A stretch of 64,000 nt of DNA, from positions 136,513-200,512 of the forward strand of contig JAXGRK010000001.1 of assembly GCA_040765985.1 (NCBI GenBank), in the 5' to 3' direction. A model generated the notes under the pieces. That model was given only the letters and a program-made list of their open reading frames with translations, made no database searches and was not told the DNA's origin. Source of the stretch: Candidatus Dojkabacteria bacterium. Its GTDB lineage: Bacteria; Patescibacteriota; Dojkabacteria; SC72. The translations under genes and the position numbers were made by a program. Shown here in pieces: positions 61,334-64,000 of the stretch. Position 1 is the first letter of the stretch. Every line of letters starts with the position of its first letter.

Positions 61334-63801
<2,468 letters not shown>

Positions 63802-63805
<4 letters not shown>

Positions 63806-64000
63806 CCCATAGTTCGATTTATTCTTTTTTTAACACCTTGCCAAACATTGCCATATTGTTTGAGCATTTTTTCTCTATGATATGCGATATCTTTTTTAAG
63901 ATATCCTTCAACATAAAGAATCTCCCATTGATTGTTTTTTGTATACCCCGTGTTAAAGGGAGAATTATGTTCATGCAATCTTCTTAAAAGATTGTAACTT
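63802..64000 (-). mobile_element. insertion in the 23S rRNA gene carrying a GIY-YIG nuclease-family ORF (C-terminal 66 codons visible; continues past the window)
   Basis: At ~63805 rRNA-like sequence gives way to AT-rich coding sequence. The minus-strand frame reads ...SYNLLRRLHEHNSPFNTGYTKNNQWEILYVEGYLKKDIAYHREKMLKQYGNVWQGVKKRINRTMG* (stop at 63802-63804). This matches the GIY-YIG small-nuclease pattern ..LERRLKEHNSG..KYT....PW.LVY.EEF....EAL.REK.LK... Confidence 0.7.

Follow-up and report, generated by a model that had tools for sequence, protein, structure and literature searches.

Background

Intervening sequences (IVSs) of bacterial ribosomal RNA (rRNA) have been known since 1990, their origin and spread being unexplained, and helices 25 and 45 of 23S rRNA are their classical sites. 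To our knowledge, the usual product of IVS-borne open reading frames (ORFs), S23p, has no known activity. Here, an insertion in helix 25 of a 23S rRNA gene is analyzed which carries an ORF of the GIY-YIG family and lies at the end of a 64,000-nt stretch of DNA (hereafter, the window) from Candidatus Dojkabacteria bacterium (GCA_040765985.1, contig JAXGRK010000001.1, positions 136,513–200,512).

The IVS of Coxiella (428 nt) comprises a 28-bp stem with an S23p ORF in its loop; RNase III cuts it, and the ends are not rejoined (PMC4990558). The helix-25 IVSs of Salmonella, Proteus/Providencia and Helicobacter occupy the apex at E. coli positions ~533–560 and are present or absent among close relatives (cited in PMC4990558); a link between IVSs and a mobility enzyme was proposed in 1993 (as cited in PMC4990558) and is not known to have been shown.

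For the candidate phyla radiation (CPR), rRNA insertion sequences with GIY-YIG ORFs are attributed to Brown et al. 2015 (as cited). Tsurumaki et al. 2024 (PMC11270868) covered insertions of at least 100 bp only, regarded their 23IS2 and 23IS4 as equivalent to IVS sites and reported GIY-YIG ORFs in CPR rRNA insertions (15 in 23S and 15 in 16S rRNA), all of them non-intron. These ORFs were sparse and without site preference, and their spread by homing was considered unlikely (PMC11270868).

Interruption of the 23S rRNA gene at helix 25

The rRNA features at the end of the window are as follows:

61090–61206, minus strand: 5S rRNA gene, completing the operon (Rfam RF00001, 79 bits)
61331–63796, minus strand: remainder of the 23S rRNA gene, E. 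coli ~550–2904 (Rfam RF02541, 1943 bits; insertion inventory versus E. coli)
63797–64000, minus strand: 3' portion of the helix-25 insertion element lying within the window, 204 nt (aligned with E. coli 23S and the empty alleles L173/L176; overlap with contig L001)

Rfam calls a bacterial large-subunit rRNA at 61331–63835 (minus strand, 1943 bits) with model positions 16–564 deleted, and true 23S homology therefore starts at about 63800. It opens with ...CUGGGUGACGGCGUGCCUAUUGAAGAAUGACCC straight after the ORF, at the 3' strand of helix 25. The window is extended by a 1372-nt Logan contig from SRR29243433 (L001), which has its last 280 nt in common with the window end at 100 % identity and contains, in this order, two tRNAs, 23S from model position 1 (E. 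coli 1–542), the ORF (1037–1291) and sequence running into the window. Alignment of the composite 23S sequence (L001 plus window, 3467 nt) to E. coli rrlB places the junction after position 542 and the resumption at about 549/550, i.e., at the apex of helix 25. The whole insertion measures about 315–327 nt (L001:970–1296) and takes the place of the native tip CCGGTATATCCGG of empty alleles.

In L001/L002, as in the syntenic L003/L004, the 5' part of 23S (~680 nt) directly precedes the insertion with its ORF. L003/L004 represent a full operon (16S-tRNA-tRNA-23S(+ORF)-5S), encode a protein 85 % identical to that of the window and match the window in the downstream genes (TMK-like, HhH-GPD, S1 and ClpB-like). 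Since L001 and the syntenic L003/L004 place the 5' part of 23S just upstream of the ORF, the gene carries an interruption at the helix-25 tip and is neither truncated nor split. The reading that the 23S rRNA is uninterrupted, with the ORF as an ordinary neighbour and domain I missing or encoded elsewhere, finds some footing in the window alone, where nothing upstream of the ORF is visible and no further rRNA fragment (the 5' part of 23S included) was found. It can be practically dismissed in view of L001 (100 % overlap) and L002, carrying 23S 1–542 just upstream of the ORF, and of 12 related loci at which 23S flanks the ORF on both sides.

The initial annotation of the window had proposed exactly such an ORF-bearing insertion, with the rest of the element and the 5' part of 23S beyond the window, and is borne out in this by the extension past position 64000 and the 23S alignment which it had suggested; the scenario it had named as refuting, i.e., an ordinary neighbouring gene with 23S starting elsewhere, is excluded by L001–L004. 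Its assignment to the 5' domain holds for helix 25, while the exact junction lies slightly 3' of the supposed E. coli position ~530. Correctly predicted were also the stop codon at the junction (63802–63804, TAG by translation) and the likeness of the visible codons to small GIY-YIG nucleases.

The encoded GIY-YIG protein

63802–63999, minus strand: GIY-YIG ORF, codons 20–84 and TAG stop codon at 63802–63804 (translation; PF01541; 100 % match to protein P0001)

The minus-strand frame from 63999 to 63802 reads SYNLLRRLHEHNSPFNTGYTKNNQWEILYVEGYLKKDIAYHREKMLKQYGNVWQGVKKRINRTMG (ending KKRINRTMG), with 65 residues visible and codons 1–19 beyond the window end. The fragment alone matches the Pfam family GIY-YIG with 25.8 bits (E=1.3e-5; cutoff 22.6), the full protein (P0001, 84 aa, 100 % identical over the fragment) with 49.1 bits (PF01541, same cutoff). 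A protein search with the fragment retrieved 12 relatives, all of them small GIY-YIG proteins (80–94 aa). Across 12 sequences 25 columns are invariant, including Y2, Y5, Y16-I17-G18, R26, H30-N31 and E50.

Profile searches match SLX1 (E=1e-6) and the UPF0213 proteins BH0048 and EF2693 as nearest solved relatives. An AlphaFold2 model (predicted local distance difference test 86; order E-E-H-E-H-H) fits the beta-beta-alpha-beta-alpha fold of GIY-YIG proteins and is recognized by Foldseek as SLX1-like (TMq 0.64, probability 1.0), with a TMq of 0.46 to the catalytic domain of I-TevI. The linker and DNA-binding domain of the I-TevI architecture were not found in the single-domain protein, and the model of group-I-intron endonucleases (TIGR01453) reaches 20.3 bits at a cutoff of 56, with a weak likeness at residues 2–36. 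Besides GIY-YIG, Pfam yields only a weak T5orf172 match, PF05635 (S23p / 23S_rRNA_IVP) not being matched. Judged from sequence and predicted structure, the product resembles a single-domain SLX1/UPF0213-type GIY-YIG nuclease and not an I-TevI-type homing endonuclease. With the latter it shares the catalytic fold, a gene within an insertion in an essential gene and the existence of empty alleles, but differs in the absence of an intron, linker and DNA-binding domain, in the TIGR01453 score (20 versus 56 bits) and in a fold nearer to SLX1; I-TevI has a length of about 245 aa. SLX1/UPF0213 proteins (YhbQ, BH0048, EF2693) provide the best sequence and structure matches, UPF0213 is similar in size, and free-standing homologues exist in the CPR (L170, L008). 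SLX1/UPF0213 proteins are encoded by ordinary chromosomal genes, SLX1 requires SLX4 and possesses a RING domain, and we know of no member residing in an rRNA gene.

A dN/dS ratio of 0.074 was obtained for the window copy versus L003; other pairs show values ≤0.25 or saturated synonymous sites. Hence the gene is maintained by selection, the ratios placing the ORF under purifying selection in most lineages. Homologues at 44–62 % identity are free-standing genes, lie in 16S insertions of other CPR lineages or are located upstream of 23S. The free-standing ones (L170 and L008, 55–62 %) are ordinary genes, and neither a convincing long stem nor the terminal module described below was found to flank them.

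Those from other CPR lineages with 44–48 % identity (L097:87–390, L158:~1365–1670 and L108–L111:1959–2230) are situated in loops of long stems with unrelated stem sequences. L097 displays a perfect 19-bp inverted repeat, and both L097 and L158 lie within 16S rRNA genes. In L108–L111 the homologue is found just upstream of 23S, and helix 25 contains an ORF-less hairpin of ~140 nt.

Anatomy of the insertion

63787–63835, minus strand: 3' strand of the ~41-bp terminal duplex extending helix 25 (minimum free energy folds of 11 orthologues; RNAalifold)

Complete orthologous insertions were compared from 11 loci (L001/2, L003/4, L005, L006, L007, L085, L086, L087, L165, L166–169 and L171); a twelfth (L009) is cut by its contig at the 5' end. 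All orthologous loci carry Dojkabacteria-type rRNA. In minimum free energy folds of the 11 complete orthologues, without exception, the insertion ends pair, with no or hardly any interruption, as an outer helix of 30–59 bp which continues helix 25 and encloses 213–333 nt with the ORF. RNAalifold on the trimmed arms yields 27 consensus pairs, 7 of them with compensatory double changes. The partner strand of the duplex lies outside the window (L001:961–1004). The 3' strand contains the final 11 codons of the ORF together with its stop codon, and thus encodes the C-terminus; it includes the conserved UAUAGGUUAGC, offering stop codons in two frames, the choice of which differs between lineages. 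The duplex of the helix-25 element also carries CCCGCUAACUUAUAG. Outside stem and ORF, about 60 nt are non-coding.

A self-splicing group I/II intron with a GIY-YIG homing endonuclease gene and religated exons has in its favour that GIY-YIG endonucleases are classical passengers of group I introns, and the weak likeness of residues 2–36 to TIGR01453 (20 bits) points in the same direction. It is nevertheless very improbable: an Rfam scan of L001:940–1320 yielded no Intron_gpI or group II match (noise only at E≤10), whereas an equivalent scan detected a group-I-like core in an insertion of L006 (40.4 bits, E=1e-8); the non-coding remainder is small; the site is a variable helix tip and not a conserved core; TIGR01453 is far below its cutoff; and CPR GIY-YIG ORFs have all been found in non-intron insertions (PMC11270868). 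The L006 insertion serving as control (5823–6595) belongs to a ~760–780-nt type near E. coli ~1923, present also in L007 and L009 and absent from the 23S rRNA gene of the window; its core (Intron_gpI, 40.4 bits) remains under the Rfam gathering score.

The helix-25 insertion replaces the apical loop of a variable helix, its complementary termini extend the host helix, and its distribution among close relatives is sporadic. It represents a hairpin element of the IVS type rather than an intron. Like the S23p IVSs of Coxiella burnetii and Leptospira (PF05635, 23S_rRNA_IVP), it (i) represents an element of ~0.3–0.45 kb in place of a variable 23S helix tip, (ii) has terminal inverted repeats forming a stem of about ≥28 bp and a loop ORF lacking a good Shine-Dalgarno motif, and (iii) is sporadically distributed, with ORF decay in some strains. 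Unlike these, it resides in helix 25 and not helix 45, encodes a GIY-YIG protein under purifying selection and not the four-helix-bundle S23p, and shares its termini with ORF-less hairpins at other rRNA sites; excision is known for the Coxiella/Leptospira IVSs and predicted here. The helix-25 IVSs of Salmonella, Proteus/Providencia and Helicobacter are similar with respect to apex site, extended stem-loop and presence or absence in relatives, but, being ORF-less and about 100 nt long, differ from the Dojkabacteria element with its gene and possible internal promoter.

As in the set of Tsurumaki et al. 2024, a Pfam GIY-YIG ORF is located in a non-intron CPR rRNA insertion; the differences consist in one fixed site within a Dojkabacteria clade (12 loci), three allele states and a conserved terminal module. 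Since GIY-YIG ORFs in non-intron CPR insertions were catalogued in 2024, the class as such is already known. Of the alternatives offered by the initial annotation, an intron or an IVS variant, the latter stands (terminal duplex of 30–59 bp) and the former does not; its suggestion that the element is worth cataloguing was in part anticipated by the existing catalogue (15 in 23S, 15 in 16S; PMC11270868). Taking shown and inferred parts together, we assign a probability of about 0.7 to the account of an IVS-type element in helix 25 of 23S rRNA with an SLX1/UPF0213-type GIY-YIG gene.

Candidate expression signals

Alignment of the 11 orthologues on their start codons revealed a -10-like box, i.e., a TAnnnT hexamer ending 5–8 nt before the start codon in 11 of 11 cases (0.20 at random positions). 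The box is preceded by TG in 8 of the 11, and in most by a TTAAY motif 10 nt further upstream. A scan of L001 for two-hexamer sigma-70 promoters and terminators yielded nothing on the sense strand. Among the long ORFs of the window, the start codons of which are not curated, Shine-Dalgarno motifs are rare (5/38), and several window genes show TATAAT-like boxes 6–9 nt from ATG, which suggests leaderless mRNAs to be widespread in this organism. There is about an even chance that the ORF is expressed from its own conserved box as an mRNA with little or no leader.

Filled, decayed and empty alleles

Syntenic operons were fetched through the TMK-like neighbour gene and compared by means of a 23S tree (755 columns). 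The ORF is intact in nine insertions; a tenth, that of L009, lacks its 5' end because of the contig border. Two are pseudogenes with intact flanking duplex: that of L005 (4001–4255) contains two in-frame stops (TGG to TGA and CAA to TAA), that of L087 (271–564) an internal deletion/frameshift with loss of the REK..KQYGNVW segment. In L173 and L176 helix 25 is empty (DNA GGAG-CCGGTATATCCGG-TGAC, RNA GGAG-CCGGUAUAUCCGG-UGAC); the uninterrupted helix reads GGAGCCGGTATATCCGGTGAC at L173:3613–3665 and L176:3905–3957. The tree groups L173 with the window organism as its sister (bootstrap 98; 96 % identity in 23S domain I), and the pseudogene-bearing L005 has L176 as its sister (bootstrap 99). The states of L173, L176, L005 and L087 on the tree thus demonstrate coexistence of intact, decayed and empty alleles within shallow clades. 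To have all three states side by side at a single site in related organisms is characteristic of homing genes, and the pattern is expected for a selfish homing-type element; vertical inheritance with loss by recombination with empty alleles is also compatible. The ORF of L171 is unusually divergent (67 % identity versus 91 % for 23S).

Conserved terminal modules at other rRNA sites

The outer 16–20 bp of the duplex constitute a sequence-conserved module, tCCC-GCTAACYTATAG...CTATRGGTTAGC-GGGa. The consensus of 30 copies is tCCCGCTAACYTATAG...CTATRGGTTAGCGGGa as DNA and UCCCGCUAACYUAUAG...CUAURGGUUAGCGGGA as RNA. The same ends bound ORF-less hairpins of 34–85 nt at seven other sites in relatives, namely 16S H6, the 16S H44 tip, and 23S ~230, ~650, H45, near E. 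coli ~1870 and H98. These lengths are below the 100-bp threshold of Tsurumaki et al. 2024. The window copy and the ORF-less hairpins are:

63801–63812 of the window, minus strand: 3' half-site of the module, CTATGGGTTAGC, consensus CTATRGGTTAGC (pattern search; 30 module copies compared)
L003, 7357–7390, 8734–8793, 10368–10432 and 12661–12710: ORF-less module hairpins
L005, 1351–1384, 2730–2793, 4371–4431 and 4956–5016: ORF-less module hairpins
L166, 1900–1983 and 2505–2588: ORF-less module hairpins
L165, 957–992 and 3169–3244: ORF-less module hairpins
L173, 4286–4344: ORF-less module hairpin

The 30 copies comprise 481 Watson-Crick, 80 G-U and 24 A-C pairs; the excess of G-U over A-C fits pairing in the rRNA-sense transcript. 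Each comparable site is present or absent among close relatives, the exception being the site near ~1870, which occurs in L165 only and is cut by the contig end. The window has the module at H25 and lacks it at H45 and H98, the inventory of its 23S remainder (61331–63796, minus strand) versus E. coli yielding no other module-bounded insertion or intron, whereas its sister L173 lacks it at H25 and has it at H45 and H98. L176 is devoid of module-bounded insertions in the entire rRNA operon. At a given site, filled alleles have variants of their own in common, and empty alleles agree in the native hairpin; deletion alone cannot produce this patchwork, which calls for gene conversion or recombination.

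In about 75 kb of other DNA from the loci compared no module was found, its occurrence being confined to rRNA genes and tRNA spacers. Viral contigs yielded no paired copies; the 17 exact 15-mer matches, all unpaired, do not exceed a rough chance estimate, which assumes an unchecked database size. A generic miniature inverted-repeat transposable element (MITE) or phage-borne repeat was rejected on these grounds, i.e., no copies outside stable-RNA genes in the loci compared and unpaired viral matches. Terminal inverted repeats common to ORF-bearing and ORF-less copies are a MITE-like trait, but target-site duplications are not visible, native hairpin tips are replaced, and only stable-RNA sites are occupied. 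Miniature inverted-repeat elements such as the Correia elements of Neisseria are cleaved by RNase III when transcribed. The modules are similar to these in being short palindromic repeats with conserved terminal inverted repeats, variable interiors and RNA hairpins; they differ in their confinement to stable RNAs, in replacing tips without visible target-site duplication and in including one member with a nuclease gene.

The 12-mer GCTAACYYATAG occurs three times in the window (0.04 expected; pattern search), once in the helix-25 element and twice a few nt 3' of tRNA genes, in tRNA-tRNA spacers:

49924–49935, minus strand: half-site copy tCCCGCTAACTTATAGtgggg in the spacer between tRNA-Ala(cgc), whose 3' end precedes it by 4 nt, and tRNA-Ala(ggc)
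27776–27787, minus strand: half-site copy cccaGCTAACCTATAGggtaggtgg just past tRNA-Arg(gcg), in a weak hairpin followed by a U-run

The copy behind tRNA-Ala(cgc) can form a 7-bp mini-hairpin, the fold being no better than shuffles (z=-0.47). The tRNA-spacer copies were not accepted as full modules, given that the half-site alone is conserved and the folds do not surpass shuffles. The U-run behind the tRNA-Arg(gcg) copy is terminator-like.

Comparison of L003:8720–8800 with L003:9925–10270, and of the same regions in L171 and L086, shows flanks alike beyond the module for the 16S H44 tip (GGTGTCCCGC...GCGGGATGACGAAGG) and 23S H25 (GGAGTCCCGC...GCGGGATGACGGCG). Empty H44 tips already read YCYCGC...GYGGGATGAC. 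These likenesses hint that the outer stem of the module may derive from the native H44 tip, or that it may spread by short flank homology.

Proposed fate of the transcript

By analogy with the helix-25/45 IVSs of Salmonella, Leptospira and Coxiella, RNase III would cut the long duplex in the pre-rRNA and the pieces would stay unligated, resulting in a functional two-piece 23S rRNA (about 0.68 kb and 2.2 kb). This course appears rather probable; if it holds, the 23S rRNA of Dojkabacteria should be naturally fragmented. At least 90 % of CPR genomes have kept RNase III (PMC12641178); a signature regex search found no RNase III gene in the window, which is uninformative for 64 kb.

Helix 25 is also the site of the eukaryotic expansion segment ES7L. 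Correspondingly, the long arm might be retained in mature 23S rRNA as an expansion segment, with the ORF transcribed separately from an internal promoter. The module sites are expansion-tolerant helices (16S H6 and H44 tip; 23S H25, H45 and H98), the conserved -10-like box would permit expression without excision, and proteins could bind to the conserved duplex sequence. However, a perfect duplex of 30–59 bp is a canonical RNase III substrate in genomes that keep rnc, and experimentally studied bacterial elements of such anatomy are all excised (PMC4990558). Moreover, the AT-rich coding loop evolves at saturated synonymous rates, and thus is not constrained as rRNA, and module-free relatives such as L176 demonstrate that the arms are dispensable. 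Retention is accordingly considered improbable, cleavage by RNase III being preferred.

Proposed mobility of the element

At the DNA level, the element may behave selfishly: gene conversion between filled and empty alleles would copy it into helix 25 or eliminate it from there, the breaks probably being made by the nuclease. This is possible, the balance being slightly against it. More speculatively, the helix-25 element might represent the nuclease-encoding ('autonomous') member of an undescribed palindromic, tip-replacing family, breaks made by the nuclease in empty alleles or in the module driving copying and loss. Such a family, which on present sequence comparisons we regard as rather unlikely, may colonise the apices of at least eight variable 16S/23S helices, and possibly tRNA spacers, in Dojkabacteria.

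Several observations weigh against the overall account of the locus, predicted excision and proposed mobility included. The window ends inside the ORF, and the 5' half rests on a contig of another sample, though one without mismatch over 280 nt. No DNA-binding domain could be recognised in the nuclease. Where nodes are supported, the ORF tree broadly agrees with the 23S tree; long vertical inheritance and occasional loss account for this no less well than active homing does, and the correlation between ORF and 23S identities is weak and noisy (Spearman 0.28, Mantel-like; confounded by alignment gaps). L173 keeps ORF-less modules while lacking the helix-25 ORF. The ORF occurs solely at helix 25 and never at the other module sites, arguing against a nuclease that simply targets the module. 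Finally, the module was rejected as a general RNase III signal of the operon, because the region of the main 23S 5'/3' processing stem contains no matches.

An alternative would be a domesticated host nuclease, specific for structure or sequence, which is lodged in the rRNA operon, acts on the module as RNA or DNA hairpin and has no role in mobility, the allele states then reflecting loss and ordinary recombination alone. Strong, long-term purifying selection, congruence of the ORF tree with the host 23S tree, the ordinary free-standing genes of close homologues (L170 and L008), an SLX1-like fold, i.e., of the structure-specific nuclease type, and restriction of the module to stable-RNA transcripts (two tRNA spacers included) are in line with such an enzyme. 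On the other hand, the ORF is decayed in two lineages that keep modules (e.g., L005), L173 has modules but no helix-25 ORF, and the absence of both from L176 means that neither is essential; furthermore, we know of no GIY-YIG RNase. Domestication is therefore judged quite improbable, and the IVS-type element with its nuclease gene remains the favoured account.

If the nuclease did drive the palindromic family, this would provide the first concrete link of bacterial rRNA IVSs to a mobility enzyme. An IVS-shaped element with a selected nuclease, three allele states and ORF-less kin makes the hypothesis of IVSs as mobile elements with a mobility gene of their own directly testable, and the rRNA insertions below 100 bp, i.e., under the survey threshold, form a structured family. 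Should the simpler reading hold (an RNase III-excised IVS with a passenger gene), the locus would constitute a well-documented new example of a catalogued class. A limited literature search yielded no earlier account of the constant position of the ORF at helix 25 in a Dojkabacteria clade, of a covarying duplex into which the ORF end reaches, of the resemblance of the nuclease to SLX1, of the three allele states at helix 25 (filled, decayed, empty) or of the module family with common termini; the last two may be new. As a warning, rRNA gene length and primer sites differ between near-identical strains.

Further observations on the operon

Module-free expansions common to most or all relatives are located at E. 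coli 275–296, 1207 and 1866. The first of these, an addition of ~129 nt to 23S domain I (L001:578–705, E. coli ~275–296), is present in all Dojkabacteria examined, including the module-free L176, and looks like a fixed lineage-specific expansion.

The TMK-like gene beside the 5S rRNA gene (window 59895–~60900, minus strand) encodes about 335 aa in all relatives (P0013–P0075); the mechanical ORF call for it (275 aa) begins at an internal TTG.

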